The position numbers were made by a program, and so were the translations under genes. A stretch of DNA of 64,000 nucleotides, taken from Bacteroidales bacterium (GTDB lineage Bacteria; Bacteroidota; Bacteroidia; Bacteroidales; UBA1715). A model generated the notes under the pieces. It saw nothing but the letters and a program-made list of their open reading frames with translations, was not told where the DNA came from and did not search any database. This document shows, one piece after another, positions 34,399 through 50,992 of this stretch (the first letter of the stretch is position 1; each line of letters begins with the position of its first letter). Location of the stretch: NCBI GenBank assembly GCA_031286165.1, contig JAITUU010000055.1, positions 404-64,403 on the forward strand, in the 5' to 3' direction.

Positions 34399-34400
34399 TA

Positions 34401-35781: not shown

Positions 35782-36239
35782 CGGCACTTTCAAAAGCAAT
35801 AAAAGAGGCAGCGCATCGCGGCGAGCAAATATACCTGCAAACCTGCACGGTTGATAGCGTAAATGAAAGCGAACGCACCATAGAATGTACACCCTTAGAC
35901 GAAGGAGCACAACTCACAGGCGTACAACTGCAAGCCGTAACAGACGAAAGAGGCGGTTTGTGTATGTTTCCCAAAGTGGGCAGTTACGTGGTTGTTGGTT
36001 TTTTCGACCGCCACAATGCTGCGGTGCTGCTTAGTACTGAAATCGAAAAAATAACAATCAATGTAAACGACACAGTGTGCATCAAAAATGAGGCGTACAG
36101 CCTTGCGCAGGCGTTCAGAGACCTTTTAACGGCGATTGGAAAACTGACTGTAACTACCGGCGTGGGTCCTTCGGGCGTGCCGATAAACGTAACGGAATTT
36201 CAACAAATACAGCAAAAACTTGATAAACTATTAGAATAA
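35778..36239 (+). CDS. Baseplate spike/assembly protein V-like
   Basis: 153 aa. ...FPKVGSYVVVGFFDRHNAAVLL resembles the OB-fold gpV/gp45 pattern. Confidence 0.5.
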   Translation: MTALSKAIKEAAHRGEQIYLQTCTVDSVNESERTIECTPLDEGAQLTGVQLQAVTDERGGLCMFPKVGSYVVVGFFDRHNAAVLLSTEIEKITINVNDTVCIKNEAYSLAQAFRDLLTAIGKLTVTTGVGPSGVPINVTEFQQIQQKLDKLLE

Positions 36240-36457
36240 TGGCATTAGTAAAAACAAGCTTGAAAACGGCAATCATGGCGGCTTTCAAAGCACAGCAAAA
36301 CAAAACGGACAATCCCGAAGGGGCGTTGAACGACTTGGCTGACAAACTTGCAACGGCAATAGATACCTACATAAAAAGCGGAACGGTAAACGTAACGGTG
36401 GCAACCACCGGCTCGGCTACGGCGCAGGCAGGGACAGGAACAGGAAATATTGTCTGA
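36239..36457 (+). CDS. Small baseplate-module protein (72 aa)
   Basis: Coupled ORF (ATAATG overlap). No motif recognised. Confidence 0.4.
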   Translation: MALVKTSLKTAIMAAFKAQQNKTDNPEGALNDLADKLATAIDTYIKSGTVNVTVATTGSATAQAGTGTGNIV

Positions 36458-36477
36458 ACCGTGATTTACAGGATTAA

Positions 36478-36801
36478 ATGATTGACAAGATGAATGGAAT
36501 TTTGATAGATAACGAAACAAGCGACCTGCTCGTGCAAGTAACACGCAATGCGCAGGGAAAAATTACACGCGGCGTGCTGGTGGGCGACTGCCGCGCAGAC
36601 GTAGCCGAACGCATACTGCAAGCCTATCCGGGAGAGTTTAAAGAACATCCTACGCTCGGCTGCGATATAAAACAGCAAATCAACGGCACAGCCTCTCCCT
36701 TTTGGCGCGGACACACCATGAGCCAACTGCGCAGCGAAGGAATAGAGGTGGAAAATTTGACAATCAACGAAAATGGAGTACAACTGAGTATCAAGTCGTG
36801 A
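36478..36801 (+). CDS. Baseplate wedge protein, gpW/gp25-like
   Basis: 107 aa; size and position match. EHPTLGCDIKQQING resembles the gp25-family loop. Confidence 0.4.
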   Translation: MIDKMNGILIDNETSDLLVQVTRNAQGKITRGVLVGDCRADVAERILQAYPGEFKEHPTLGCDIKQQINGTASPFWRGHTMSQLRSEGIEVENLTINENGVQLSIKS

Positions 36802-36883
36802 GATATGAGACATGAGATTTGAGATTTGAGACGTGAGAACTGAAAACTAACAATTAACCATTTACAATTAATAATTAACAATT
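36802..36883. repeat. Heptad-periodic intergenic leader (11 x 7 nt + 5)
   Basis: gatatga gacatga gatttga gatttga gacgtga gaactga aaactaa caattaa ccattta caattaa taattaa caatt, then ATG. Confidence 0.85.
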
Positions 36884-37303
36884 ATGGAAAACAACCTCCC
36901 ACGCGGCTTGCGAAACAACAACCCCTTGAATATGCGCATAGGCGAAAGTGCATTTACCGGCGAAATCAAACCGGGCACAGATAGAAGTTTTCGCCAATTT
37001 CAAACTATGGCGTATGGCTACCGCGCCGCCTTTCGGCAAATGGAACTCTACTTGGGGCGCGGGCTGAATACGATTGAAAAAATCATAACAACATGGAGTC
37101 CGCCCGAAGAAAACCACACGCAGGCGTATATTGCTATGGTGTGCGCCCACACCGGCATTGCATCCACAAAAGTACTCACGCTCCACAGCGGCGAAGATTT
37201 TATACGAATAGTAGCCGCCATGAGTTACGTGGAAAACGGGCAACAACCGGTAATGGCAGACGTGCTTGCGGGATTTGCGTTACAAACGGCAATAACAAGA
37301 TAG
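36884..37303 (+). CDS. Conserved phage protein with an RNNNPLNMR motif; candidate cell-wall hydrolase by context
   Basis: 139 aa: PRGLRNNNPLNMRIG...FRQFQTMAYGYRAAFRQMELYL. Directly precedes two membrane/lipoprotein genes. Confidence 0.35.
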   Translation: MENNLPRGLRNNNPLNMRIGESAFTGEIKPGTDRSFRQFQTMAYGYRAAFRQMELYLGRGLNTIEKIITTWSPPEENHTQAYIAMVCAHTGIASTKVLTLHSGEDFIRIVAAMSYVENGQQPVMADVLAGFALQTAITR

Positions 37304-37386
37304 ACACAAGACACGAGATATGAGATTTGAGACGTGAGATTTCAGACTAACAACTAAGCACTAATAACTAACAACTAACAACGAAT
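37304..37386. repeat. Heptad-periodic intergenic leader (11 x 7 nt + 6)
   Basis: acacaag acacgag atatgag atttgag acgtgag atttcag actaaca actaagc actaata actaaca actaaca acgaat, then ATG. Confidence 0.85.
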
Positions 37387-37734
37387 ATGGACACATCAAT
37401 TATTATAACAGTAATCGGCTTGCTGAGCGCGGTGGTAGGGAGCACATGGATTGCTTCGGTGGTGCTGCGGCGCAAGTATGAGCAGGAAATAGAACTGCTG
37501 AAAGCCGACCACCACCGCAAAGAAAGCGACACCAACGGCGTGGAAATAGCCAACGCCAAAGAAGTACTCAAAACTCAAATGGAATACATAATAACCCCTT
37601 TACAAAATGAAATCAAAGCACTTAGAAAAGATGTACGAAGCCTGCGCAGGGCTGTGGAAAAAATCAGCGATTGCCCTCACAGTAGCGATTGCCCTGTGCG
37701 CCGTGAGTTGCAAAACAACGAAACTAACGACTGA
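37387..37734 (+). CDS. N-terminally anchored coiled-coil protein (holin- or i-spanin-like)
   Basis: TM segment IIITVIGLLSAVVGSTWIASVVL followed by a charged helical region. Overlaps the next gene by 128 nt in another frame. Confidence 0.4.
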   Translation: MDTSIIITVIGLLSAVVGSTWIASVVLRRKYEQEIELLKADHHRKESDTNGVEIANAKEVLKTQMEYIITPLQNEIKALRKDVRSLRRAVEKISDCPHSSDCPVRRELQNNETND

Positions 37735-38080
37735 AACCGCTACCACACTCAGCCACCATGCCGCCGATGTGCGATGGACTACCGACACGGTGTTTGCCGC
37801 CGAAAAAGACTTCGTGTTTGTGTACATAAACGGCGACACGGTGTATAGAGACCGCCTGCGCGACCGCTTTGTGTATAAAACCAAACGCGATACCACCGCC
37901 CGAACCGACAGCGTGTATGTAGAAAAAAAAGTATTTGTGGAACAAGAAAAACAACTCTCCCGGTGGCAACAACTCAAACTCGACTGCTTTTGGTGGATAG
38001 TGGCGCTCAATATTGCACTACTCGTTTTTATCGGCATTTACGCAGTGATTAAACGACTTTTAAATAGACACAAGATTTGA
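37607..38080 (+). CDS. Lipoprotein with a C-terminal TM helix (spanin-like; possible unimolecular spanin)
   Basis: The signal and lipobox-like IALTVAIALCAVSC, plus a C-terminal CFWWIVALNIALLVFIGIYAVI. The gene starts inside the preceding gene, an Rz/Rz1-like arrangement. Confidence 0.4.
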   Translation: MKSKHLEKMYEACAGLWKKSAIALTVAIALCAVSCKTTKLTTETATTLSHHAADVRWTTDTVFAAEKDFVFVYINGDTVYRDRLRDRFVYKTKRDTTARTDSVYVEKKVFVEQEKQLSRWQQLKLDCFWWIVALNIALLVFIGIYAVIKRLLNRHKI

Positions 38081-38140
38081 GACGTGAGACATGAGATTTC
38101 AGACTAACAACTAATAACTAATAACTAACAACTAATAGGT
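38081..38140. repeat. Heptad-periodic intergenic leader (8 x 7 nt + 4)
   Basis: gacgtga gacatga gatttca gactaac aactaat aactaat aactaac aactaat aggt, then ATG. Confidence 0.85.
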
Positions 38141-38467
38141 ATGAAATATTCCGTTCTTGACCGACAAAGTATGTTTGACATTGCCCTGCAAACGGCAGGC
38201 AGTGCGGAAGCAGCCTTTGCCCTTGCGCGCGAAAACGACCTTTCGCTTACGGAAGATTTGGAGGTGGGTGCGGTATTGACAATGGGGCAATCAATATTGA
38301 CAATGGGGCAATCAGTATTAACAATGGGGCATGCCCCATTGCTAAACAAAAACGTTACCGATTTTTTCGCCAACAAACACCTGCGCCCGGCAACGGCAAT
38401 TTCCAACACCGAAACCCACATTGTGGGACGAATATTTGATTACACGTTTGAAGAACAATTTGAGTAA
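38141..38467 (+). CDS. LysM-like tail protein X homolog with an internal heptapeptide repeat
   Basis: The N-terminal YSVLDRQSMFDIALQTAGSAEAAFALARENDLSLTEDLEVGAVL is LysM/gpX-like. Followed by (V/I)LTMGQS repeats. Confidence 0.45.
   Translation: MKYSVLDRQSMFDIALQTAGSAEAAFALARENDLSLTEDLEVGAVLTMGQSILTMGQSVLTMGHAPLLNKNVTDFFANKHLRPATAISNTETHIVGRIFDYTFEEQFE
38275..38340 (+). repeat. In-frame 21-bp tandem repeat (~2.8 copies) ending in a 16-bp palindrome
   Basis: TATTGACAATGGGGCAATCAA / TATTGACAATGGGGCAATCAG / TATTAACAATGGGGCAT.... ATGGGGCATGCCCCAT at 38325-38340 is a perfect palindrome. Confidence 0.85.
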
Positions 38468-38520
38468 CAAGACACAAGACACAAGACACAAGACTTTTCA
38501 ACTTTCAATTTTCAATTAAA
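38468..38520. repeat. Heptad-periodic intergenic leader (7 x 7 nt + 4)
   Basis: caagaca caagaca caagaca caagact tttcaac tttcaat tttcaat taaa, then ATG. Confidence 0.85.
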
Positions 38521-39378
38521 ATGGCACGCACAATTTCAGAGATAAAAAAAGAGATAACGGACGATTTCGTGAGTAATCCGGCAGTGGTAGAAGCCTACGG
38601 TTTGGAGCAGGGAAAATCCTTTGAGGAGCAATTTTCAAAAGCGAGTTTGGAGAGCATCCTATTCTACCTGCACGCGGCGAAAATTTGGCTTTTGGAGACA
38701 CTGTTCGACACCCACCGCGAGGAGATAAACACCATTCTGCAAAGCAAACGTCCGCACACGGTGGGGTGGTATCGTGGGGCGGCACTTGAATTTCAATTCG
38801 GGCGCGAACTGCGGGCGGACGTGGCGGAATACGATAATTCGGAATTGAGCGAAGACGAAATTGCAGCCGAGCGCATCGTAAGCAAATGCGCGGTGGAAAA
38901 AGCCGAATTTGCCGAAAAGCCGACCCTGACCATCAAAGTAGCCAAAGCCGCCACGCACTTAACCGATGCCGAAAAAACGGCATTTGAAAAATACATGAGC
39001 GAAAAAGCCGATGCAGGCGTGCGCTTGAATATTATCAGCGGCGCACCCGACCGCTTGTGGCTCAGTATCATTATTCGGCACGATGGGCTTGTGTTGAACG
39101 GCAGCGGCGAACGGCTTTACGGAGGGAGCGAAAAACCTGTTGAAAAGGCGGTTAAAAATCATTTAAACAAGCTTGTGTTCAACGGCACGTTTTTCCCCTC
39201 GCTCTTGGAGCAGGAACTCATGCGCCTGCCGGGTGTGAAAATCGCCACCGTGCAAGCCTCGCAAGCCTGCCCCGCCGGTGGCACCCTCACGCAGTTTGTG
39301 GACAAATATCAACCCCTCACCGGCGCGTTGGATATTGACACGGAAAACGATTTGCGCGTGGAATACGAGTTGATATAA
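38521..39378 (+). CDS. Baseplate J-like protein
   Basis: 285 aa. Called from its position after the gpW/gpX-like genes. Confidence 0.45.
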   Translation: MARTISEIKKEITDDFVSNPAVVEAYGLEQGKSFEEQFSKASLESILFYLHAAKIWLLETLFDTHREEINTILQSKRPHTVGWYRGAALEFQFGRELRADVAEYDNSELSEDEIAAERIVSKCAVEKAEFAEKPTLTIKVAKAATHLTDAEKTAFEKYMSEKADAGVRLNIISGAPDRLWLSIIIRHDGLVLNGSGERLYGGSEKPVEKAVKNHLNKLVFNGTFFPSLLEQELMRLPGVKIATVQASQACPAGGTLTQFVDKYQPLTGALDIDTENDLRVEYELI

Positions 39379-39443
39379 TTGTCTGAACCGGGATTTTCAA
39401 GATTAAAGGATTTTCAGAATTAACCATTAACCATTAACCATTA

Positions 39444-39968
39444 ATGAAACTATTTGAGATACAATGGGACAAATTGAACGTGTTGTTACTGCCCACGTTC
39501 TTGCGGAAAATGCGATACTTCGCGTTTCTAAAAGCCTGCACGCAGCCGATTTGGACGGTCTATCGGTGGTTTGCGGAGTGCCGGGAGCAAACGCTCTTTT
39601 TGCTGAAATTCGACACAAGCAAAGGTAACGTAGAACGTGCGCTGCGCACAAAATTTGAATCGGACAGAATTTATATTACCAATACCGATACCGTAACAGA
39701 TAACACAATCTACCTTGCAAGTGCCGAACTCGAAGAAATCGTGTATTTAGATGCGTGGCTTGGAACATTGGAGGAACTTACACCCATTGAACGTACCTAT
39801 TTTGACGATACGCTGTATTTGGATTTTTTTATAGCCCCCAAAGCAACTTTGGCGGACTTTACCGTACACGTTCCGGCAGGAACCGATGCCGTGTACCACA
39901 CCGAAATCGTGCAATTTACCGAACAGTTTACCCTGCCCGGATTTCGATTCCAATTACAAATATTTTAG
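39444..39968 (+). CDS. Baseplate/tail protein, gpI / Mu gp48-like by position
   Basis: 174 aa, following the J-like gene. Confidence 0.35.
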   Translation: MKLFEIQWDKLNVLLLPTFLRKMRYFAFLKACTQPIWTVYRWFAECREQTLFLLKFDTSKGNVERALRTKFESDRIYITNTDTVTDNTIYLASAELEEIVYLDAWLGTLEELTPIERTYFDDTLYLDFFIAPKATLADFTVHVPAGTDAVYHTEIVQFTEQFTLPGFRFQLQIF

Positions 39969-40001
39969 ACACAAGACACATAGACACTAATAATTAAAAA
40001 A

Positions 40002-40766
40002 ATGAATAGAATTGAATTACAAGACAATGGATTTCCGATGACGGCAAAAACACTGCGATTTTTGCAAGAGGCGTATCAAAAACCGATTGAATTTTTGGCA
40101 CGCGAGGCAGCGGTACGCGCAGGCGGCAACTGTATTTTGTACGGAGTAGAACAAACATCAAGCGGCGGCGCGTGGACGGACGGCGCAATAGTTTACAACA
40201 ACGAAATTCTGCCCTTTGTGGGAGGTAGTGGTAACTACTTTTCCGTGAAAAACACACCGGAGCAGGCAGTGTATAAAAATGGGTTGAGCGTAGATGCCTA
40301 CTTCACACGCTACGCGCAAACCGACACAAGCGGCACCGCTATTTCGACACTAAAACGGCTCAACGAACCCGCGCCCACTGCACCCGCAAACACCGCGTGG
40401 GCTTCGCCAACATGGCAAACGGACTATGCAGACATGGCTACCTACCCCCTGAAATGCCGTATATATGGTGGAAAAGGGCAAATAGTGGGAACGTATGAAC
40501 GAACATTTCCTTTGCCATCACAAATTACTACCGATAGTTATACAACGATACTCACACTTCCATCTTCAATGAAACCCAAAAAAGAACAATGGATTACGGC
40601 GCAAATAAGTAGCGTTAGTGCATTTAACTCTCCCAATAATATATTTGGAGCGGGTTTGTTGCAAATTACCACCGGTGGGTTATTGCGAGTGCAATACAAT
40701 AAAGAAACACGCGGAATGGGATTAATTGACTGTGGCGTGATTGCCGCCACCTTCGATTTACTGTAA
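40002..40766 (+). CDS. Tail fibre-associated / receptor-binding candidate
   Basis: 254 aa, located between the baseplate and long-fibre genes. Confidence 0.4.
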   Translation: MNRIELQDNGFPMTAKTLRFLQEAYQKPIEFLAREAAVRAGGNCILYGVEQTSSGGAWTDGAIVYNNEILPFVGGSGNYFSVKNTPEQAVYKNGLSVDAYFTRYAQTDTSGTAISTLKRLNEPAPTAPANTAWASPTWQTDYADMATYPLKCRIYGGKGQIVGTYERTFPLPSQITTDSYTTILTLPSSMKPKKEQWITAQISSVSAFNSPNNIFGAGLLQITTGGLLRVQYNKETRGMGLIDCGVIAATFDLL

Positions 40767-40804
40767 TTTTCAACTTTCAATTTTCAACTTTCAATTCAAA
40801 AAAC
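40767..40804. repeat. Heptad-periodic intergenic leader (5 x 7 nt + 3)
   Basis: ttttcaa ctttcaa ttttcaa ctttcaa ttcaaaa aac, then ATG. Confidence 0.85.
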
Positions 40805-42505
40805 ATGGATTTACAAAATTTAGCAAATCGCGCCGTACAAGTGCGCGAAGAAACACAGCAGGGGCAAAACACGGCAAAGCGCGTGGGTTCGCTGTTCTAC
40901 GATATTATTACCTTCTTTTCGGGTTTGCTGCAAGGAAAGCAGGACAAAACAGACGAAACTCTGCAAACCACCGACAAAAGTGTACCGGGTGCAATCAACG
41001 AAGTGTATAATGGTATTTCGCTCCTGCAAGGCAACGTGAGCGATGCGTTGGGGGAATTGGAGGGCGAAGTCATGCGGGCAATTACCATAGAAACCCAAAA
41101 CCGCACGGAGGCACTACTCGCCGAAACAAATAATCGCACCGCCGCCATTGCCGCGCTTGATAATCAAAAGCAGGACAAAAGCGATGCGAACCTGCAAACC
41201 GGCGCGAAAACCGTAGTAGCCGCCATAAACGAGGTGCTTGCAAATGCGAACGCAATAGGACACAGGGTGCTTACGTGCAATCAAGGCATGGCGTGGAACG
41301 GAATACCCAATGACGGCGGAAATTCTGCATACAACAACTATTACAATGTAGCAGACGGCACAATAGACGTGTACAAAGACTGGCCGGGCTTCAAACTAAA
41401 CGGCGCAACGGTGAATATGCAAACCGATGTACGTGTGGGCGATATTGCTATGGACGGTGCCGGAACCAATTTCAGCTCAATGGTAGGCGTATTTATTCAA
41501 GGTTCCCCACAACCGCGTGTAAAACTACTGCCAAACGCCATGAACCGATATTATAGATTAATCAGAAACGCCACAAACCCTTACGTAAAAATCGGGAAAA
41601 TGCAAACCTCGTTTGTGGGAAGACCGTCCGTAACAAGTTCGGTAGTTATATCAATGCCGGTGGGCGATGCCGCAGCCTCAAATTCCAATCCTATCACGCA
41701 CAGTGCTATATTCACATGGAACGGCAACAAAATATATCAATCGAACCCCATAGAGGGCTACACCTTTCGCTGTGATAGCGGGGGGTGTTTGTATGTAACC
41801 ATTCCGCGCAATACCTACATATATGCCACCACATGGCACGAATCGTATTTTAATTTAGACAAAACGGTAGTAACCGCTGCCGAATGGGAAACACTCTCGC
41901 CGGTGGTGCTGCCATTATTTGCAGGCGAGGCTTACGACCTCAATACAGAGGCAAAAGATATTATCGGCGCAATTAATGAGATATATTCTATTGCCGGACA
42001 AAGTAGCGGCGGTGTTGCTATTATAGAAAGTTTCCCTTTGGCACTATGCGAAGGAGCGCAAAATATCAATCCGGGTTTTGTGGGATTTTTAACCGTTCCT
42101 ACGGTCGATACGCTTATTTCCAAAGCGCAAACCTGCGTGCAAACAAATCACACGGCAGGTAATTTTAAAGTGGCTATTTACAATGAGAATAAACAGTTGG
42201 TGGGCAGTACACAATGGGGGTATTTGGCACGCTCCAAAGCGTGTTTTGTGGAAGCCGATTTTACCGCACCACTGACACTTACCGCCGGAGAGTACTATTA
42301 CGTAGTATTGCACATTGACCACTACAATAGCCGCTATTTGGCAGCAAAGCAACTCAAATGTAACGTGGCAGGTTCCGCGAACGTATTGCAAACCATAATA
42401 GCAGGTAGCGCACAAACAGAACAAAACGATTTGAGCGGGTTTATTACCCAATCCTTTCCCTGCACTGTGCAACAAATTGATGTGCCGTATGTGAAAATTT
42501 TTTAA
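40805..42505 (+). CDS. Tail fibre protein
   Basis: 566 aa, last late gene, followed by a strong terminator. Carries three copies of a K-x-V/I-x-G/A-A-I-N-E-V/I-Y/L motif (KSVPGAINEVY, KTVVAAINEVL, KDIIGAINEIY). Confidence 0.6.
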   Translation: MDLQNLANRAVQVREETQQGQNTAKRVGSLFYDIITFFSGLLQGKQDKTDETLQTTDKSVPGAINEVYNGISLLQGNVSDALGELEGEVMRAITIETQNRTEALLAETNNRTAAIAALDNQKQDKSDANLQTGAKTVVAAINEVLANANAIGHRVLTCNQGMAWNGIPNDGGNSAYNNYYNVADGTIDVYKDWPGFKLNGATVNMQTDVRVGDIAMDGAGTNFSSMVGVFIQGSPQPRVKLLPNAMNRYYRLIRNATNPYVKIGKMQTSFVGRPSVTSSVVISMPVGDAAASNSNPITHSAIFTWNGNKIYQSNPIEGYTFRCDSGGCLYVTIPRNTYIYATTWHESYFNLDKTVVTAAEWETLSPVVLPLFAGEAYDLNTEAKDIIGAINEIYSIAGQSSGGVAIIESFPLALCEGAQNINPGFVGFLTVPTVDTLISKAQTCVQTNHTAGNFKVAIYNENKQLVGSTQWGYLARSKACFVEADFTAPLTLTAGEYYYVVLHIDHYNSRYLAAKQLKCNVAGSANVLQTIIAGSAQTEQNDLSGFITQSFPCTVQQIDVPYVKIF

Positions 42506-42506
42506 G

Positions 42507-42537
42507 AAAAAGGGAGAGTGAAGATTCTCCCTTTTTT
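42507..42537 (+). terminator. Terminator after the tail fibre gene
   Basis: AAAAAGGGAGA-gtgaagat-TCTCCCTTTTT. Confidence 0.75.
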
Positions 42538-42559
42538 GTTGAAAAAATTGCTGAAAAAG

Positions 42560-42590
42560 TTGCTTAATACGAAAAAACGTATTATATTTG
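42560..42590 (+). promoter_or_regulatory. Bacteroidota-type promoter for the right-end morons (TTG-N20-TATATTTG)
   Basis: TTG at 42560-42562 and TAtaTTTG at 42583-42590, just after the tail-fibre terminator. Confidence 0.5.
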
Positions 42591-42613
42591 TAGTGTATTA
42601 AAAAATAAACATT

Positions 42614-42760
42614 ATGGACAAATTAAAATTAACAGACAAAGAAATTGAACTAATAGAGGCTATTAGGAATTTCCAAAAAACAAAACACAATTACTCTTTT
42701 GATTTAGAGTTTTACGTTCGAGAATTATTTGAAAGTATTTTAACCGAAAAAGAAGATTAA
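42614..42760 (+). CDS. Small moron protein (48 aa)
   Basis: Manually translated as MDKLKLTDKEIELIEAIRNFQKTKHNYSFDLEFYVRELFESILTEKED. Has its own TTG-N20-TATATTTG promoter and a terminator. Confidence 0.35.
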   Translation: MDKLKLTDKEIELIEAIRNFQKTKHNYSFDLEFYVRELFESILTEKED

Positions 42761-42766
42761 CCAATA

Positions 42767-42797
42767 AAACCCCGCTCGAAAAAGTGGGCGGGGTTTT
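42767..42797 (+). terminator. Terminator after the 48-aa moron
   Basis: AAACCCCGC-tcgaaaaagtgg-GCGGGGTTT followed by T. Confidence 0.65.
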
Positions 42798-42813
42798 ATT
42801 TAAAATTATAATT

Positions 42814-43062
42814 ATGGAAATAACAGTAACACAACAACAAAAGGCAATGAAATACCAAATGAAAGATATTGCATTAGATATTACATGGTCGAAGATAGCG
42901 AAACGGTACTTTGGAAAGTCCGCCTCGTGGATGTATCATAAGTTGAACGGAATGGACGGCAATGGAAAGCCAACCGATTTTAGTCCGGAAGAAAGAGAAC
43001 AACTAAAAAATGCATTGTTTGATTTTTCGGAAAGAGTGCGAACGGTTGCTTATGCTATTTAG
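42814..43062 (+). CDS. Moron protein (82 aa)
   Basis: ATG at 42814; the tracked GTG start lies inside the preceding terminator hairpin. Followed by its own terminator. Confidence 0.45.
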   Translation: MEITVTQQQKAMKYQMKDIALDITWSKIAKRYFGKSASWMYHKLNGMDGNGKPTDFSPEEREQLKNALFDFSERVRTVAYAI

Positions 43063-43097
43063 GCTCAACACATAGTGTTTCTTTTTTAATACACCCG

Positions 43098-43128
43098 AAC
43101 CCTGCAATGAGCCTTTGCAGGGTTTTTT
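43098..43128 (+). terminator. Terminator after the 82-aa moron
   Basis: AACCCTGCAA-tgagcct-TTGCAGGGTT followed by TTTT. Confidence 0.75.
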
Positions 43129-43133
43129 ATTGT

Positions 43134-43290
43134 ACGTTGGAACGCAGTTTAATCGGTATTGAAATGGGGATTATCAATCTCGAACCTTTTATAGGCACAG
43201 GAACAACGGCGGTAGTAGCGCGAGAGTTGTGGTTTTAAAATCGAACTCAATCCCGATTATATAGAGATAGCAGAAAAGAGGCTGCGGTAA
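43134..43290 (+). pseudogene. C-terminal remnant of an N6/N4 DNA methyltransferase (frame-broken)
   Basis: Encodes ...IINLEPFIGTGTTAVVARELWF* and then, in another frame, FKIELNPDYIEIAEKRLR*. This matches the DPF-GSGTT...IGIE-N--Y---A--R tail of PF01555-type methylases. No upstream catalytic region is present. Confidence 0.55.
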
Positions 43291-43294
43291 TAGA

Positions 43295-43331
43295 AAAAGC
43301 GCATAAAATTTGATGGTTTTATGCGCTTTTT
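43295..43331 (+). terminator. Terminator after the methylase remnant, near the prophage right end
   Basis: AAAAGCGCATAAAA-tttgatgg-TTTTATGCGCTTTT. Confidence 0.7.
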
Positions 43332-43368
43332 ATACTAAGTTAGTGGAGGTGGCGAAAAAGTGAAAAAA

Positions 43369-43415
43369 TTCGTGTTTGGTTTAAATTTTTTTCGTGTTTG
43401 GTTTTGTGGATTATA
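43369..43415. repeat. Prophage right end with two putative transposase-binding repeats
   Basis: TTCGTGTTTGGTT occurs at 43369-43381 and 43391-43403 (22-bp spacing), 12 bp from the junction. Confidence 0.6.
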
Positions 43416-46338: not shown

Positions 46339-46592
46339 GTGGTTAGTTGTTAGGAGTTAGGGGTTAAAGTAGATATTTATTCACGTCATATGCTGTAGTC
46401 CAAATACCTTCAACAGATTTTTCCATTGTTCCCACAGAAAGAAGTATTTCTTTTTTTATTTTCTTTTCGGTTTCGGTTTCTTTTCTCGAAAACACTTATA
46501 CAACATTATTTTTATTTCCCATAATCCCATTCATTCGTGTCTTCATATTTGTCGTTTTTTAGTTATTATTTCAGTTGTGTACATAAAAAAAC

Positions 46593-46633
46593 CGGTACAG
46601 TTCATATTGAATTGTACCGGTTGTGAGGGAGGG
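46593..46633. repeat. Boundary repeat family, copy F (hairpin-forming variant)
   Basis: CGGTACAGTTCATATTGAATTGTACCGGTTGTGAGGGAGGGT. GGTACAGTTCA and TGAATTGTACC form an 11-bp stem with one mismatch. Confidence 0.6.
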
Positions 46634-46645
46634 TAAAAAAATTTT

Positions 46646-47185
46646 TTAGATTGTTTTCAAGTCAAAATACATTGCTCGTGTTTCTTCGTCTTTATCGGTT
46701 TCGGTCATAAACTTAAAACCATTTTTTTCGTAAAAATCGGTTACTTCGGCATAAGCATCTACGGTTATGAAACGGCAACCGGCTGTTTGCAGTGTTTCGG
46801 CGTACAGTTTTTTAACATAGAATACAATAATTCTGCCGAAACCTACCTGCGCCGATTTCTTATTGACAGCCAATCGTCCTATTTTTACGGCAGGGTGGCT
46901 TTTCTTACGTTTATTGTTTGCCACACTTCTACTCAATCTGTTCCATTCCGTTTTACTTACATCAATACGGGCTATACGGTCGTTTGATAATGAAAAATAG
47001 GCAATCGTTTCAGTGTTTGTTTGTAACACATAGGTTACGGCAAACAAATCATTCAAATATTTCTTTGCATCATTTTTCAAAAATTTATTCAAATCGTCTT
47101 TTCCGCAATCGAAAGAATGAATAGGAGTATCTTGTGTCAATCGAGCAATGTCCCATTCCAATTGTTCTACTTTTCCTAAACTCAT
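46646..47185 (-). CDS. GNAT-family acetyltransferase, probable TA toxin
   Basis: The acetyl-CoA motif region IGRLAVNKKSAQVGFGRIIVFYV and ...FYEKNGFKF. Start overlaps the stop of a 53-aa upstream ORF (ATGA). Confidence 0.65.
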   Translation of the reverse strand: MSLGKVEQLEWDIARLTQDTPIHSFDCGKDDLNKFLKNDAKKYLNDLFAVTYVLQTNTETIAYFSLSNDRIARIDVSKTEWNRLSRSVANNKRKKSHPAVKIGRLAVNKKSAQVGFGRIIVFYVKKLYAETLQTAGCRFITVDAYAEVTDFYEKNGFKFMTETDKDEETRAMYFDLKTI

Positions 47186-47343
47186 AATACAGGGAATGTT
47201 GCTCGTGATTTAATTAATTCATACGCAGCATCCATTTCTCTGCGTTCTTTTGCCGATATTTTTTTTGGATTTGCAATTTCTCTTTCAAATCTTCGAGCCT
47301 CTTCACCATACAGTGTCGGTGTTTCTTTTATAGGTCGTGCCAT
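47182..47343 (-). CDS. Putative antitoxin of the GNAT toxin (53 aa)
   Basis: Manually translated as MARPIKETPTLYGEEARRFEREIANPKKISAKERREMDAAYELIKSRATFPVL. Translationally coupled to the GNAT gene. Confidence 0.5.
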   Translation of the reverse strand: MARPIKETPTLYGEEARRFEREIANPKKISAKERREMDAAYELIKSRATFPVL

Positions 47344-47405
47344 AGTCTTATCCTTTTACGTTTTTTTTGCAAATATAACGCAAAATTTGAAAAATTGTTT
47401 CTTTT

Positions 47406-47447
47406 CGGTACAATTCAATGTGTCAATGAACTCGGTGGGTTGGGTGG
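47406..47447. repeat. Boundary repeat family, copy B
   Basis: CGGTACAATTCAATGTGTCAATGAACTCGGTGGGTTGGGTGG, 63 nt upstream of the GNAT-operon start, with a TATATTTG -7-like box in between. Confidence 0.7.
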
Positions 47448-47709
47448 TGTGTTGCTTCACACACAATAGATAAAAAAAGCATCGTTCAGTTTGTTATTCC
47501 GGCGAAGAAAGAAACTCACTCAACGATGTTTTTGTGTTATACATTTTTTGCAATTCACAATTGATTTTCTTCGCCTGCCAAACGTTCTCTGAATGTTTGG
47601 TTTTGTAAATGTATAATTTTTTCGGAGTAAAATCCAAAAAATTAATACAGTTTTTCCAAAAAAATTCAACACATATTTCTAATACACTAAATATTAATTA
47701 CTTAAATTT

Positions 47710-48039
47710 ATGGATATGAAAAAAACAATAGGACAACTAATTCAAGAAAAAGTAGAAGCCGAAAAAATGGAAGTAACGGCTTTTGCAAAGGCTATCGAAA
47801 AAGAACGTAGCAATGCGTATGATATTTTTAAAAGAGATAGTATAGATACAAAACTGTTGAAAAAAATTGGACAAGTTTTGAATCATGATTTTTTTCAAGA
47901 TTTATTAGAACCTGAAACAAAAAAACGATTAATGGCAAAGAGGGGGATAACTCGTAAAGTATTGGTTGAATTGGAACTTACAGACGAGGAAATTAATATG
48001 TTAAAAATAGAAAAAAAAATAATAGATGAACGACAATAA
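47710..48039 (+). CDS. Small HTH-like protein, first gene of an AT-rich three-gene operon
   Basis: 109 aa. TIGQLIQEKVEAEKMEVTAFAKAIEKERSNAYDIFKRDSI resembles an XRE-like HTH. Confidence 0.4.
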   Translation: MDMKKTIGQLIQEKVEAEKMEVTAFAKAIEKERSNAYDIFKRDSIDTKLLKKIGQVLNHDFFQDLLEPETKKRLMAKRGITRKVLVELELTDEEINMLKIEKKIIDERQ

Positions 48040-48604
48040 ACATGACAATTATAGACTGCTTTGGATACTCATGGCGTGCAGTGCTGCATTTTGGGTATTT
48101 GGTTTGATTGCAACACAATTCGGGTGTGTTTATACAGATATACAAACAGGCATAATTCTTACATTTATTGGTATTTTGGCAACTTTTGTTGTTGTAAGTA
48201 ATTATGCACAAGTACAAGATGTTGAAGAAAAGCATAATAAAGAAAAAGAACAATTACGCAAAGAAAATGCTGAATTAAGAAATGAAATTGATAAAAAAAT
48301 AGAGGAACAAAATAAGAAAAATACTGCCCAAACCCTTTTTACAATAGGAATGTTATTATTAAACGAAGGGAAAGTGGAAAATGCTATTGGTTGTTGCGTT
48401 GCTTCGGTATTGTGCTATTGTGAAATACATAAAATTGAAGAATGTTTTCTTGATAAAGAGGTTTTTAGCACCTTCACAAAAAAAGAAGATATAAAAGTGC
48501 GTAAATACTTAAAAAACAAGTGGATTGATGAATTAACGAAATACATTGTTAATACAAAAATACGGGAAATAATAGAAGAAATTAAAAAAATCAATGAATT
48601 ATGA
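48026..48604 (+). CDS. Two-TM membrane protein with a coiled coil (192 aa)
   Basis: TM segments LLWILMACSAAFWVFGLIA and GIILTFIGILATFVVV, followed by a K/E-rich coiled coil. Overlaps both neighbours. Confidence 0.45.
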   Translation: MNDNKHDNYRLLWILMACSAAFWVFGLIATQFGCVYTDIQTGIILTFIGILATFVVVSNYAQVQDVEEKHNKEKEQLRKENAELRNEIDKKIEEQNKKNTAQTLFTIGMLLLNEGKVENAIGCCVASVLCYCEIHKIEECFLDKEVFSTFTKKEDIKVRKYLKNKWIDELTKYIVNTKIREIIEEIKKINEL

Positions 48605-48942
48605 AAATAAATGCAAGCCTAATTGATAAGAAAAACGGAGAAGTCATACAAAATGAAATCAATGTAACTGTGTGTAATTCGTTCGTACCAAGTAACGTGT
48701 TTTTTATTGATAAAAAACATAAAGACGAGACAAAAATACAGAATATAATCAGTGCTGAAATGAAAGTACCGGCAGGGTGGATTCTGAGTTTAACTTTGAT
48801 ACAAATCATACAAGACGGTAGATTGGAAACATACATTATAGATTACACAATAAGTGATGAATATGAAATACAAGGAGATGAAGTTTTTGTTGATTGGTGT
48901 GGCAAACCATGCGTTTTAACTGAAAAATTAGATAACGAATAA
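48601..48942 (+). CDS. Hypothetical protein (113 aa), third gene of the operon
   Basis: ATGA-coupled to the membrane protein. No motif recognised. Confidence 0.45.
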   Translation: MKINASLIDKKNGEVIQNEINVTVCNSFVPSNVFFIDKKHKDETKIQNIISAEMKVPAGWILSLTLIQIIQDGRLETYIIDYTISDEYEIQGDEVFVDWCGKPCVLTEKLDNE

Positions 48943-48951
48943 TTCTCTTTT

Positions 48952-48995
48952 CCACCGAGTTCCTTGACATACTGAATTGTACTGAGAGAAAAAAT
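48952..48995. repeat. Boundary repeat family, copy C (reverse orientation), upstream of higB
   Basis: CCACCGAGTTCCTTGACATACTGAATTGTACTGAGAGAAAAAAT. Its reverse complement aligns with copies A and B. The last 26 nt are identical to 49695-49720. Confidence 0.7.
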
Positions 48996-49013
48996 TCACA
49001 AAAAAAGTGAATT
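48993..49013. promoter_or_regulatory. Perfect palindrome AATTCAC-N7-GTGAATT, candidate HigA operator
   Basis: Read at 48993-49013, between the boundary repeat and a TATCTTTG -7-like box (49033-49040) upstream of higB. Confidence 0.4.
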
Positions 49014-49049
49014 TTTAGAATAAAATAGTATCTTTGTAAAAACGAAGGT

Positions 49050-49370
49050 ATGAAAATAGTGTTTAAAAAAGAGTACTTGGCGGAATTATACAATACAGGA
49101 AAAACAACGAATAAAAAATATCGTTTCCAGCCCGAAGTAATTGCCGGGTATTTAAAATGCGTAAAAGCAATTCAAACTGTTGTGCGAATAGAAGATTTAT
49201 ATGTAATCAATTCATTGCATTACGAAAAATTGAGGGGAGATAAACAAGGCTTATCTTCCGTAAGAGTTAATAAACAATATCGACTTGAATTTAGAGAAGT
49301 AACTAATCCGAACAATATTACAGAAGTTGAATTTTGCTCACTAATAGAATTATCGAACCATTATAAATAA
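49050..49370 (+). CDS. higB: HigB-like toxin (RelE/plasmid-maintenance-killer family)
   Basis: 106 aa. ...LHYEKLRGDKQGLSSVRVNKQYRLEF is the typical HigB C-terminal pattern. Followed by a HigA-type gene. Confidence 0.7.
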   Translation: MKIVFKKEYLAELYNTGKTTNKKYRFQPEVIAGYLKCVKAIQTVVRIEDLYVINSLHYEKLRGDKQGLSSVRVNKQYRLEFREVTNPNNITEVEFCSLIELSNHYK

Positions 49371-49377
49371 TAGAAAC

Positions 49378-49710
49378 ATGACTACACATACTCCGTTTCG
49401 TCCGGTACACCCAAGCGAGATGCTGAAAGACGAGTTAGAATATAGAGGCATCAGTCAAAGAAAATTTGCCGATACGTTGGGAATGTCGTACACAGTACTC
49501 AATGAAATTTTGAATTGCAAACGCCCTATCTCTACCAATTTTGCTTTGGCAGTAGAAAGTTCGCTTGGTATTCCTGCATACATATTGAACAATATGCAAG
49601 CAGAGTATAATTTACAAACAGCACGAAAAGACCGAACCTTTGCCTATCAATTACGAAAAATACATAAGTTGGCAGTGGCTGCTTGTTTTTATCCTACTGA
49701 ATTGTACTGA
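49378..49710 (+). CDS. higA: HigA-family HTH antitoxin
   Basis: PVHPSEMLKDELEYRGISQRKFADTLGMSYTVLNEILNCKRPIS is the classic HigA/VapI HTH. Confidence 0.8.
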   Translation: MTTHTPFRPVHPSEMLKDELEYRGISQRKFADTLGMSYTVLNEILNCKRPISTNFALAVESSLGIPAYILNNMQAEYNLQTARKDRTFAYQLRKIHKLAVAACFYPTELY

Positions 49711-49720
49711 GAGAAAAAAT
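49695..49720. repeat. Boundary repeat family, copy D: exact 26-bp direct repeat of 48970-48995
   Basis: TACTGAATTGTACTGAGAGAAAAAAT brackets the higBA cassette. This copy also supplies the last codons and the stop of higA. Confidence 0.85.
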
Positions 49721-49893
49721 CTATAAAAACACTTATTTTTCTTCTTTTTTGTTATGTTTTTGCGTTCAAGATAGTATAACCACACTATTGGAAACGTTTT
49801 TTACGTTTCACGAAAGCAGTAGGCGACAAGAGGTGTAGTGCCGTGTCATACAAAGCCGACTGCTTTTTTATGAGGAGGAGAGAAAACAGATGA

Positions 49894-50340
49894 TTATTGT
49901 ATCAATGATTTCAGAAGTCCTAAGTCTGTTTCAAGGAGTTTTATGTTGTTAAATTGGGTAAAATCTTTTGTGTTGTTGGTCAAAATAGCATCGCATTTCT
50001 TTTTTTGACTCAAAATGTAGTGAACGCTATCTTCAATATCTTCACTGCTTTCATTAAATCCCTTTTTTATATCAGCCAAAGTAAGGTCTAAAACAGTGAA
50101 TTTACCCGACAAATAATTGAGTTCATTAATGGTCTTTTCTTTGCTGTATGCCTTTCTATTCCGTGCTTTGTTTCCCGATTGCAAACGGCTTATTGTTTGC
50201 ACTATTGCCAACGAAGATGTGAAAAGACTGTGTTTTTGGCGTTTTGCAAAAACGTGTTTGAGAGCCGCCACATCGGCAGTTTGCCCTGTGCAATAATTAA
50301 TGAGTACGTTGGTATCAACGTAGATTTTTACGTATCTCAT
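49894..50340 (-). CDS. vapC: PIN-domain toxin (VapC-like)
   Basis: 148 aa. N-terminal IYVDTNVLINY with a conserved Asp, and a later acidic IEDSVHY. Coupled to a 60-aa upstream ORF. Confidence 0.7.
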   Translation of the reverse strand: MRYVKIYVDTNVLINYCTGQTADVAALKHVFAKRQKHSLFTSSLAIVQTISRLQSGNKARNRKAYSKEKTINELNYLSGKFTVLDLTLADIKKGFNESSEDIEDSVHYILSQKKKCDAILTNNTKDFTQFNNIKLLETDLGLLKSLIQ

Positions 50341-50522
50341 TAGAATACCAATTTATTGAAACGTTTGCGTTCGGCAGCGGTAATCATATCAAGATTTGCC
50401 GCTACGTAATTATGTTCCGCAACCGCGTGTAATTTTGCTCGTGAATACCCTGATTTACTTAAAATAAGTTTCAGCAATTCGTCTTTTTGTTGTTTTACTA
50501 CATCTATTTTTTTTGTTGCCAT
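50340..50522 (-). CDS. Putative VapB-like antitoxin (60 aa)
   Basis: Its stop overlaps the PIN gene start by 1 nt. Confidence 0.45.
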   Translation of the reverse strand: MATKKIDVVKQQKDELLKLILSKSGYSRAKLHAVAEHNYVAANLDMITAAERKRFNKLVF

Positions 50523-50576
50523 AGTCGTAATTGTTTATTTGTTTATGCAAATATACAACGAAAACGAAAATTACAA

Positions 50577-50615
50577 TATTTTTCTCTGTACAATTCACTA
50601 TGAACTATACCGGTT
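50577..50615. repeat. Boundary repeat family, copy E (diverged), upstream of the vapBC-like operon
   Basis: ATTTTTCTCTGTACAATTCACTATGAACTATACCGG shares GTACAATTCA and the TTTCTCT flank with copies C and D. A TATATTTG box lies between it and the operon start. Confidence 0.5.
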
Positions 50616-50795
50616 TTTTTGTGCCGAAATCCTCACCAATAAGAAATGTGTGTGGTTTGGGTAATGAATAGGTAATGTTTGAAAAAAATTGAAAGTCAGT
50701 GTTTTATATATCTTATTTTCTTTTTTCTTACTTATTACTTATTTTTTTAGAAAAAAATAGAGAGAATAAAAATAGATATAAGAGAGGTACGAAAA

Positions 50796-50815: not shown

Positions 50816-50930
50816 TGGGGTACATAGGAGGTATGAAATATATGAAAACAAAAAAAGAATGAAAATATAACTATATGCCATTCAGCGCATTATATGTTTT
50901 TGCGATGTGTTTTTACGTGCCGAGTGCATC

Positions 50931-50955
50931 GTCGGTTCGAGTCCGGCTCCCGCAA
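50931..50955 (+). tRNA. Partial tRNA gene: T-arm + 3' acceptor strand only (att-site remnant)
   Basis: GTCGG-TTCGAGT-CCGGC forms a T stem-loop, followed by the acceptor strand TCCCGCA and a discriminator A. No complementary 5' acceptor (TGCGGGA), D-arm or anticodon arm lies in the preceding ~75 nt. Confidence 0.6.
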
Positions 50956-50965
50956 CTTACTTAGA

Positions 50966-50992
50966 AAACACTGCGTTTGCGGTGTTTTTTTT
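50966..50992 (+). terminator. Terminator directly after the tRNA fragment (native tRNA terminator)
   Basis: AAACACTGC-gttt-GCGGTGTTT (one G-T pair) followed by a T-run. Confidence 0.65.

Follow-up and report, generated by a model that had tools for sequence, protein, structure and literature searches.

Among the closest described systems are the dif modules of Acinetobacter Rep_3 plasmids, whose boundaries are 28-bp pdif XerC/XerD sites in inverse orientation (PMC13141974). The array analysed here, in a 64,000-nt stretch of a Bacteroidales contig (JAITUU010000055.1; the whole stretch is called the window), shares with them discrete small modules that are very often toxin-antitoxin pairs, including higBA, short boundary sites that are inversely oriented and alternate along the array, modules without genes, fused modules in which a site has been lost or damaged, and the occurrence of one module in differing configurations across replicons (PMC13141974). 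Here, in contrast, the two sites of one cassette have different outer arms, one site doubles as a predicted terminator while the other is coupled to a promoter, the cassettes sit in Bacteroidales chromosomal islands instead of Acinetobacter plasmids, and there is no sign of Xer involvement and no observed rearrangement. Integron cassettes, especially the promoter-bearing toxin-antitoxin cassettes of chromosomal integrons, are likewise accessory-gene arrays separated by related imperfect palindromes (attC), rich in toxin-antitoxin genes and variable in content between genomes, but in the present array the sequence itself and not structure alone is conserved, each cassette has two inverted (not direct) ends in place of one attC, and every cassette brings its own promoter and terminator, in mixed orientations. 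The morons of phages and islands are also autonomous transcription units that bring a promoter and a factor-independent terminator and are found close to the end of an integrated element; the ends seen here differ in belonging to one recognisable family of sequences whose common core is inverted, and we know of no morons in which one conserved pair of end sequences spans unrelated genes and genomes. Mobile insertion cassettes and cargo MITEs similarly hold passenger genes between imperfect inverted repeats, with no internal transposase and in varied contexts, but here target-site duplications are absent and the ends have transcriptional roles. Finally, REP, BIME and REPIN elements are imperfect palindromes of about 30 nt, sometimes in inverted doublets, that lie 3' of genes as terminators or stabilisers; unlike them, the present repeats are not abundant in the DNA scanned, are tied to the ends of small accessory cassettes and have no associated RAYT. 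No earlier description of the motif turned up in the literature searched.

The original prediction listed six related repeats in the window, and both their positions and their significance hold up: a 31-nt consensus gave three matches at up to three mismatches in the window and none in 100 shuffles, far above chance expectation. Profile HMMs trained on the full set of copies gave E values of about 1e-11 to 5e-15 for five of them (A 7e-11, B' 4e-15, C 5e-15, D 2e-12 and F 2e-11) and a weaker 6e-3 for the truncated copy E, and the scan of the window yielded no copies beyond the six. They had been described as one family, which is right insofar as all share a 17-nt core, CGGTACAATTCAATATG; by folding and position, though, they are not of a single type but of two, with A, C, D and the truncated E in type I, and B' (46592-46620) and F (50585-50613) in type II. 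The features concerned are as follows.

10543..10578, + strand: copy A, type I, CGGTACATTTC-AATATG-TCAATGAAATCGG (HMM)
11417..43415, no strand: Mu-like transposable prophage, 31,999 bp, with the 5-bp duplication TTTCA at 11412-11416 and 43416-43420
46582..46624, - strand: copy B', type II, CCGGTACAATTCAATATGAACTGTACCGG and T7, predicted intrinsic terminator 25 nt past the stop codon of the GNAT toxin gene (fold and HMM)
46646..47343, - strand: GNAT-type toxin (179 aa) and upstream 53-aa partner, the content of cassette 1
47344..47392, - strand: predicted promoter and 5'UTR of the GNAT cassette, -7 box at 47370-47377
47393..47441, + strand: copy C, type I, 5' boundary of the GNAT cassette (HMM)
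47710..48942, + strand: three-gene operon (HTH protein of 109 aa, membrane protein of 192 aa, protein of 113 aa)
48951..48994, - strand: copy D, type I, 5' boundary of the higBA cassette (HMM)
49050-49370, + strand: higB
49378-49710, + strand: higA
49695..49720, - strand: copy E, truncated type I (26-mer identity and HMM)
49894..50522, - strand: PIN toxin (148 aa) and 60-aa partner, -7 box at 50548-50555
50578..50623, + strand: copy F, type II-like, degenerate hairpin and T7, at the 5' position of the PIN cassette
50917..50990, + strand: probable right end of the island, resembling the 3' portion of a tRNA (T-loop GGTTCGAGTCC, acceptor strand), then a terminator

Type II sequences fold at -16.7 to -18 kcal/mol (z -4.4 to -5.3) and are followed by a T-run; copy B' (46593) reaches -17.6 kcal/mol (z -5.3), and the hairpin of copy F (50577) is degenerate at -6.5 kcal/mol. 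The element consists of a 13-bp stem with one conserved mismatch (position 14/26, mismatched in eight of nine copies), a loop of 3-5 nt and T6-8, and across copies 12 stem pairs are 91% paired, with one compensatory change from C-G to A-U. It sits 22-33 nt past the stop codon and was found 3' of the stop in nine cassettes. Because of the hairpin and T-run, we read type II as a rho-independent terminator, which predicts termination at these sites. Copy 46593 had been taken for an upstream element, an assignment that we reject, since it lies 3' of the GNAT operon as a terminator; the earlier reading overlooked this subtype and hence also the 5'/3' pairing that defines a cassette.

Type I carries the same 17-nt core in inverted orientation, differs from type II in its outer arm, has no T-run and does not fold (z about 0). 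It lies 61-71 nt 5' of the start codon, directly upstream of a Bacteroidetes-type promoter, and all 12 copies with a visible gene stand 5' of it in uniform orientation. In the window, the claim that four copies (10543, 47406, 48952 and 50577) precede a gene in constant relative orientation is correct, at 40, 62, 65 and 63 nt from the start codon, respectively, and so are the proposed -7 boxes, TATATTTG at 47370-47377 and 50548-50555 (both - strand) and TATCTTTG at 49029-49036. Type I is an inverted, non-folding derivative of the type II sequence, joined to a portable Bacteroidetes promoter and 5'UTR, with promoter activity predicted in the stretch that leads from type I to the ATG. This promoter, its 5'UTR and an opening ATGGCA (two codons) are common to seven cassettes, which belong to four gene families; blastn aligned the PIN cassette of the window with the DUF5618 cassette of locus L004 over 94 nt at 74% across this 5' module, and the module of the GNAT cassette is homologous to those of PIN and DUF5618 cassettes elsewhere. 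Because type I stands, both here and in other genomes, 5' of cassettes of the GNAT, higBA and DUF5618 types and of two unrelated PIN families, the promoter half of the proposed portable promoter/operator module is upheld, but of the operator half there is no sign.

A cassette thus described runs from type I through the promoter and the gene or genes to type II, with the cores inverted, and the GNAT cassette has this frame complete, type I 5' and type II 3'. The three-gene operon at 47710..48942 lies between the outer sides of C and D, with no frame motif of its own. The higBA cassette has no type II end, either in the window or in locus L016. It begins with copy D, 3' of which come an operator-like palindrome, AATTCAC-A7-GTGAATT (48993-49013), and the -7 box, and it is bracketed, as originally noted, by exact 26-mers (48970-48995 and 49695-49720). 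The second of these, copy E, still has its inner arm, together with a 13-nt inner flank and 4 nt from the central segment, while the 3' end of higA stands where the outer half would be. Copy E does supply the last codons of higA, namely six C-terminal residues, YPTELY, and the stop; the closest HigA homologues end in ...AACF, and the window has TAT where its relatives have the stop TAA or TGA. Copy F looks like a hybrid: its inner flank and inner arm are type I-like, its outer arm and T-run type II.

The same type I/type II frame surrounds higBA, DUF5618, PIN and GNAT cassettes at six or more independent loci in other metagenomes and MAGs, the genomes concerned being termite-gut-type. Neighbours differ between loci, and homology starts and stops at the motif edges. 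The same unit, ending at the motifs, recurs in different surroundings: DUF5618 in L004, L016, L018 and L022, and higBA in the window, L016 and L011. In both families similarity sets in at the outer edge of type I; it ends past the type II T-run for DUF5618 and at the higA stop codon for higBA. Between L018 and L028 the cassette coding sequences are 98% identical and a flanking housekeeping gene 89.7%, yet the 3'UTR from stop codon to type II is unrelated (26%) and corresponds to the L016 version, a pattern that, on these alignments, we read as recombinational mosaicism. The motif did not occur away from cassette ends in about 175 kb scanned (window and related loci).

Starting from the observed anatomy, hairpin, conservation across genomes, unit boundaries and mosaic exchange, we consider, with a probability of roughly 0.5, that the repeats form both ends of one conserved frame around the cassettes, and that insulated expression cassettes are exchanged by recombination at those ends. 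With a terminator 3' and a promoter-linked type I 5', each toxin-antitoxin-type gene set becomes an autonomous, insulated transcription unit of fixed geometry, and since unrelated cassettes have their ends in common, these can serve as homology that travels with them. Cassettes would be swapped, entire or in part, between frames, across islands and chromosomal sites, giving rise to arrays with differing content and orientation, and the exchange would presumably proceed by general homologous recombination or gene conversion and not through a dedicated enzyme. The alternative reading of the original prediction, a recombination site organising a cassette array on integron-like logic, is adequate as a description of boundaries (exact unit ends, hybrid F, truncated E), but not as a mechanism: the ends are inverted, the cassettes have their own promoters, the repeats contain no attC R''/R' core sequences, and neither an integron integrase nor attI is visible, the only recombinase in view being the unrelated transposase of the prophage.

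Several observations fit homologous recombination poorly. It leaves the inverted 17-nt core at both ends unaccounted for, and gives no account of why type I is conserved at about 90-100% and the adjacent promoter at about 75%. At the chromosomal higBA of L012, type I has decayed while promoter and operator persist; a lone cassette stands between housekeeping-type genes in L018-L021 and L028, where no prior frame is expected; in L011, L018 and L028 a single cassette has the rare core variant GTAAAA at each end; the common ends (30-100 nt, 75-95%) are short for efficient RecA-dependent exchange; and the 26-nt D/E duplication has an edge within the would-be crossover region of a tyrosine-recombinase-type site. 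The matched GTAAAA variants and the excess conservation of type I would suit a dedicated site-specific recombinase, which we hold to be plausible, though on balance unlikely. Core and arms would then be its target, an 11-bp arm, 6-bp spacer and 11-bp arm, and the cassettes modules between inversely oriented sites that move, invert and fuse by central strand exchange. Site orientation does alternate along the array, in the window as B' (<-), C (->), D (<-), (E), F (->), and likewise in L016, with short gene-free stretches between type II and the next type I. The resemblance to dif modules, also rich in toxin-antitoxin genes, with empty and fused modules in alternating orientation (PMC13141974), points the same way. 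Copy F resembles a type I inner half with a type II outer half, and E and D have the inner arm and 4 of 6 central nucleotides in common before diverging; however, the D/E identity runs 13 nt past the arm, which simple strand exchange does not predict, and the inner flank of E is type I-like, where the reciprocal product of a PIN cassette inversion would have a type II-like one. Whole sites, outer arms included, also accompany the cassette to places with no expected prior site (L018), and neither the island ORFs tested nor the gene tables of the related loci include a tyrosine or serine recombinase. To our knowledge, the repeat has no likeness to the bacterial dif/pdif consensus.

It is unlikely that the core instead serves as the operator of a single regulator or nucleoid protein, such as the 109-aa HTH or the DUF4248 protein of the island, which would coordinate or silence all cassettes with the boundary pattern as a by-product. 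The fixed position of type I upstream of the -33 element (roughly -45 to -80), its strong conservation in spite of not folding, and the near-perfect inverted repeat that type II forms as double-stranded DNA, apt for a dimer, are all compatible with such a protein. But on contigs where these island genes are missing (L018, L028) lone cassettes have the motif too, closely homologous versions of the same genes work without it (L012, L023, L025), binding at a terminator has no obvious regulatory logic, and an operator role for type I is less apt because higBA cassettes bear their own palindrome, AATTCAC-N7-GTGAATT, a better fit to an antitoxin operator.

Distinctly unlikely, too, is that the cassettes move as non-autonomous transposable units, either mobile insertion cassettes or MITEs with cargo, whose imperfect terminal inverted repeats of about 30 nt, with tips CCGAGTTCA... 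and ...GTACCGG, are recognised in trans by a transposase encoded elsewhere. This would explain the inverted ends, the exact halt of homology at their outer edges, the complete units alone at a chromosomal site amid unrelated genes, and the left ends of L022 and copy F, where an A-run mirrors the right-end T-run as in full inverted copies. Against it, inspection by eye of about eight insertions revealed no target-site duplication, one end is missing from some cassettes (higBA of L016 and of the window), the family is rare (one genome match and one metagenome match with the patterns used), and no transposase with matching ends was found, the ends of the Mu-like prophage (AACCAAACACGAA repeats) being unrelated; we know of no autonomous element with matching ends. 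That the motif is an ordinary host-wide extragenic repeat, REP/BIME-like or uptake-sequence-like, that lies near cassettes only through their intergenic location is very improbable, for although type II followed by inverted type I looks like a REP doublet, and REPs and uptake sequences are frequently also terminators, scanning 13 kb of host DNA, the 32-kb prophage, the rest of the island and more than 100 kb of DNA flanking related loci gave no copies, and the sole RAYT seen (L023) has REPs of an unrelated, GC-rich family on its flanks and a DUF5618 neighbour without the motif.

Copy A lies directly past the stop of the split primase-helicase gene of the island, 40 nt upstream of a 67-aa gene on the - strand, with a T8 run in place of the usual promoter-side flank. 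Since the Mu-like prophage splits that gene and thereby separates copy A from B' to F, the distance is only apparent, and A belongs to the same island as the other copies. The right end of the island is probably marked by 50917..50990, judging from its tRNA likeness, although tRNA calling returned no tRNA there; two independent assemblies of one sample both break at about this position, and host genes (tgt, tsaC-like) follow from 51028 on.

The repeats of this island form the two ends, 5' and 3', of a conserved frame in which small accessory gene sets lie between two related end sequences, type I and type II. All six copies stand where the original prediction placed them, as confirmed by a consensus compared with shuffles and by profile HMMs. 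A 31-nt consensus with up to 3 mismatches matched the window at 10545 (copy A), 47408 (copy C) and 48952-48982 on the reverse strand (copy D), with 0 matches in 100 shuffles, while the 10-nt core GTACAATTCA has exactly 5 exact occurrences in the window, all within 46.6-50.6 kb. Profile HMMs from all copies scored A, C, D, B' (46593) and F (50577) at E-values of 1e-11 to 5e-15 and the truncated copy E (49695) at 6e-3, and detected no further members in the window. Oriented with GTACAATTCA forward, all copies have in common (C)CGGTACAATTCAATATG, a 17-nt core, and diverge after it. In type II the core continues as AA(C/A)TGTACCGG followed by 6-8 T residues, so that a hairpin of 13 bp with one mismatch results. 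B' folds at -17.6 kcal/mol (z -5.3) and type II at other loci at -16.7 and -18.0, the z scores ranging from -4.4 to -5.3. The stem is 91% paired over 9 aligned copies, with one C-G pair changed to A-U on both sides, a compensatory change, in 2 copies, and position 14/26 mismatched in 8 of the 9. With its stable, G+C-containing hairpin, direct T-run and a position 22-33 nt 3' of the stop codon on the coding strand in 9 cassettes, type II is a predicted intrinsic (rho-independent) terminator. Type I continues after the core as TCAATGAACTCGG, is without a T-run on either side in most copies, and folds no better than shuffles (z -0.2 to +0.4); it is an inverted, no longer folding derivative of type II, fused to a portable promoter module.

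The repeats had been described as lying upstream of operons, and this holds for the copies at 10543, 47406, 48952 and 50577, the promoter-side copies being 40, 62, 65 and 63 nt from their start codons. B' was misplaced in that description: it lies 25 nt past the GNAT toxin stop on the coding strand and is the predicted terminator of the GNAT operon, not an upstream element. The three -7 boxes reported between repeat and start codon in the window cassettes are all present in the sequence. Copy F, although it has the outer arm and T-run of type II, stands 5' of the PIN cassette and points away from it, with a degenerate stem (-6.5 kcal/mol). The 26-mers flanking higBA, 48970-48995 and 49695-49720, are identical, and the downstream repeat does supply the end of higA: the C-terminus of HigA is encoded by copy E, and the window protein ends with an additional YPTELY. 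The closest HigA homologues (64-67% identical) stop at ...AACF, and the window gene has TAT where its relatives carry the stop TAA or TGA. A further operon (47710-48942) is enclosed by two type I copies that turn their outer sides towards it. It encodes an HTH protein of 109 aa, a two-helix membrane/coiled-coil protein of 192 aa and, without a family match, a protein of 113 aa, and could serve in defence or abortive infection. Among the genes of the island's left part, a ParE-like toxin gene (6791-7105) is without the frame motif, and a C5 DNA methylase gene (9762-10302) seems to be split into overlapping frames, 9958-10302 and 9762-10226, and is therefore probably a pseudogene.

The anatomy of the frame is regular, the inner edge of type I lying 61-71 nt from the ATG in 11 of 12 cases (40 nt for copy A). 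A common 5' module is present in seven cassettes of four unrelated families (GNAT, DUF5618 and two of the PIN type). It consists of type I, an inner flank rich in purines (GAAAAGAAA), TTTG/TTG at -33, GTTGTATATTTGC, a related 5'UTR and ATGGCA as the opening two codons. The three higBA cassettes have type I in common, followed by a palindrome of their own, AATTCAC-N7-GTGAATT, and their own -7 box. Promoters of Bacteroides and Flavobacterium combine TAnnTTTG at -7 with TTTG at -33, the two lying about 19-20 nt apart. All framed cassettes contain TATATTTG or TATCTTTG, most with TTTG/TTG 18-20 nt upstream, and thus match the Bacteroidetes housekeeping pattern, making these predicted promoters. A sigma-70-type promoter in copy C (TTGAAA-16-TACAAT) was rejected, the total count of such sites being at chance and the type not being used by Bacteroidetes. 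Across genomes, copies of one cassette become similar at CCGAGTTCA, the outer edge of type I, and similarity ends after the type II T-run for DUF5618 and at the stop codon for higBA, while the neighbouring genes are different at each locus carrying a given cassette. These limits at the frame edges, together with the changing neighbours, indicate that the unit inherited or moved is the whole frame.

Exact-pattern scans returned a single locus from the genome collection, on a MAG contig of Bacteroidales bacterium Hm464_bin65 (L004; Hm464 is the sample code of a Hodotermes termite-gut MAG set), one true metagenome locus (L006) alongside five chance matches (L005, L007-L010), and no match in viral contigs. 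BLAST against plasmid and phage collections gave no match. The patterns were too narrow and missed GTAAAA, TTGG and TACG variants, so that the scans underestimate how common the family is. Following the cassette proteins was more productive and reached most related loci; because the proteins led to these loci, unbiased sampling is limited to the DNA that flanks them. Across about 175 kb of non-redundant DNA, each copy marks where a small accessory cassette starts or ends, which speaks against the motif being a common host repeat, and related genomes hold the same cassettes in different orders and contexts, as the original prediction implied. The contigs with the closest HigA relatives (L016 and L017) have six motif copies and carry, after a tRNA-Arg gene, a co-oriented array of DUF2442, higBA with a TPR/FISUMP lipoprotein gene, DUF5618, and an 84-aa protein with PIN_3, built in the order type I, promoter, gene(s), type II, with one L016 cassette lacking the 3' site. 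L016 and L017 come from different samples; their arrays match at 100% identity for 3,823 nt and diverge 22 nt past the last type II T-run (L016 5074-5087, L017 3824-4218), after which L017 has a second copy of the lipoprotein gene, 98.5% identical and with its own promoter. The higBA genes of L011 have a GTAAAA variant of each type at their ends and are flanked by a methylase and a BT4734-type primase, on a backbone related to that of the window island (DUF4248 57% identical, primase 38%). DUF5618 homologues of 73-100% identity have the same framing in L004, L016, L018-L021, L022 (from the same sample as the window) and L028/L029. The L004 gene (4722-5119, compared with L016 3668-4066) is seemingly truncated by a frameshift, at 110 aa versus 132 aa, and both of its frame motifs are intact despite this. 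More distant or "domesticated" genes, DUF5618 in L023 and L025 and higBA in L012, are without motifs, L012 retaining only a decayed inner half of type I beside an intact operator-like palindrome and -7 box.

The island itself is interrupted by a prophage, with the following features.

11417-43415: Mu-like transposable prophage (32.0 kb), with the target-site duplication TTTCA at 11412-11416 and 43416-43420
12102-12650 (- strand): repressor-like HTH gene of the prophage
12932-15070: transposase of the prophage (phrog_310, E 1e-23)

The segment 12102-15967 encodes the repressor-like HTH protein, a small Ner-like ORF, the phage transposase and an AAA_22 (MuB-like) protein, and the prophage ends carry AACCAAACACGAA repeats. 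The L004 primase-helicase (937 aa) aligns to the window in two parts, residues 465-660 to 44000->43416 and residues 664-886 to 11399->10704, and in-silico removal of 11417-43420 restores an open helicase frame through the Walker A motif (GSGKSLMFRSLRTLKHILTKGGRDK). The split helicase, the restored frame and TTTCA on both sides lead to the conclusion that the 32.0-kb prophage was inserted in the island helicase gene. Copy A lies directly past the stop codon of this primase-helicase gene; it belongs to the same island as copy F, from which about 8 kb separated it before the insertion. The host genes start with tgt at 51028, followed by a Sua5/YrdC-type gene, and just before them stand a sequence resembling the 3' part of a tRNA and then a terminator, which we infer to be the right end of the island. 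Assembled contigs from the same sample match the window, and two independent ones break at the tRNA-like fragment. ARAGORN called no tRNA at this fragment and Rfam at E-value thresholds did not confirm one; over the window, Rfam at gathering thresholds and ARAGORN found nothing. Beside the fragment and terminator, 50640-50990 contains an AT-rich 300 nt with the direct repeat TCCTGATAA present twice (about 50795-50825), and may be the attR arm region, in which case the intact tRNA and an integrase may sit past the left end of the window.

As to how the cassettes move, recombination between frames would be the main route, a reading to which we give a probability of about one half. Comparing the two DUF5618 loci L018 and L028, identity is 89.7% in the upstream glycosyltransferase gene, 95% in type I and promoter, 98% in the DUF5618 coding sequence and 97% in type II, while the 27-34 nt from the stop to type II are unrelated (26%), the L028 version matching L016; the downstream gene differs from a few codons past its start. 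Private variants also recur among the copies of one genome, namely AATACG and ATCC for L016, GTAAAA for L011, L018 and L028, and AGAGAAAAA for D, E and F of the window. The mosaic identities, the L016-like 3' stretch and the within-genome private variants favour homologous exchange.

Several features point to a more specific mechanism. The core is inverted between the two cassette ends, and type I exceeds the promoter in conservation and has decayed at L012. GTAAAA marks the 5' as well as the 3' end of the same cassette, although efficient gene conversion would need more than 17 nt. Copy F resembles the inner half of a type I fused to the outer half of a type II, the D/E duplication stops 4 nt into the 6-nt segment between the arms, and L018 has a lone complete cassette between ordinary genes. 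It is nevertheless plausible rather than likely that a dedicated recombinase or transposase recognises CGGTACAATTCAATATG together with its two outer-arm variants, and unlikely that a dedicated site-specific recombinase moves the cassettes, since no recombinase is visible among the ORFs scanned and the D/E identity continues 13 nt past the arm. No Phage_integrase-type match was found among the scanned island and host ORFs, the left end of the island lying outside the window. A dif site spans 28 bp, with arms of 11 bp for XerC and XerD on either side of a 6-bp spacer. The sites can be parsed as 11-6-11, CGGTACAATTC / AATATG / outer arm, and no similarity to the bacterial dif consensus is apparent. 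As in the dif modules of Acinetobacter plasmids (PMC13141974), inversely oriented sites bound the modules and orientation alternates along the array (<-, ->, <-, a partial <-, -> in the window; ->, <-, <-, ->, <-, -> in L016). This system is the closest analogue in logic, with no membership claimed.

The absence of attC cores also counts against a dedicated enzyme. An attC site was defined by an R''/R' pair flanking an imperfect palindrome of about 55-140 nt; a regular-expression search for R'' (RYYYAAC)/R' (GTTRRRY) pairs gave 0 in 46001-51000 on both strands (mean of 1.1 in shuffles), and the repeat motif holds neither core. Unlike integron cassettes, those described here carry TAnnTTTG promoters and lie in both orientations, with neither an adjacent IntI and attI nor a co-oriented array of mostly promoterless cassettes. 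Movement by a trans-acting transposase is quite improbable. An inverted 17-nt core at the exact unit ends, where similarity stops, is what a MITE or mobile insertion cassette would have, but inspection by eye of about 8 cassettes revealed no flanking direct repeats that could be target duplications, and the only transposase in the window is that of the Mu-like prophage, whose ends are unrelated. REP/BIME/REPIN elements are not indicated, with no copy away from cassette ends in the roughly 175 kb covered and no Y1 transposase in the window. L023 (8560-9960) does encode a Y1 transposase (RAYT-like, 150 aa) with arrays of GC-rich REP palindromes (GTAGGGCGTTGCCCTACG...) on both sides, directly upstream of its DUF5618 gene; a link was rejected, these REPs being unrelated and that DUF5618 gene having no motif. 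Neither the Mu-like prophage ends nor the CTnDOT core GTANNTTTGC gave a convincing match. Inversion of the PIN cassette between its own two sites was also discarded, as it accounts for F and leaves E's inner flank unexplained. The gene that precedes the lone DUF5618 cassette has a 71%-identical relative at which the cassette is missing; the downstream gene there differs too, so this relative provides no clean empty site.

The literature search returned no description of the motif or arrangement, only unrelated primers for the motif as a string, and no mention of DUF5618. Integrons, dif modules and transposons are the few systems for which it is understood how toxin-antitoxin and other small accessory genes are scattered and reshuffled. 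In several uncultured Bacteroidales genomes, unrelated cassettes now prove to have one recognisable pair of end sequences in common, which is a searchable signature for locating them, and the frame of promoter and terminator could become an expression tool in Bacteroidetes. Should a dedicated enzyme read the common core, termite-gut-type Bacteroidales would have their own, new cassette-mobilisation system, a functional analogue of integrons and Acinetobacter dif modules unrelated in sequence, specialised in self-expressed toxin-antitoxin and small accessory genes, and with one recombination site doubling as a terminator. Should none do so, the frames would illustrate clearly how, in nature, portable homology drives the exchange of modules.

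Two other repeats were noticed. Degenerate 7-nt tandem units (CTAACAA/CTAATAA/ATTAACC, GAGATTT/AAGACAC) lie directly 5' of many start codons, both in the prophage and in host DNA as well as in a related MAG (window 17506-19700, 27800-27890, 30198-30262, 36770-36890, 37295-37402, 38065-38149, 52145-52194, 52903-52944 and 54946-54990; L004 4560-4615). They look like a lineage-wide 5'-leader feature that is not known to have a described counterpart. A second repeat family, GTCTGAACCGGGATTTTCAGGATTAAAGGATTTTCA, is found in the window at 26516-26560, 36448-36492 and 39377-39421, in L006 (200-300), as a long hairpin after a gene, and in L016 (4140-4240), in a gene-free segment from a type II copy to the next type I.
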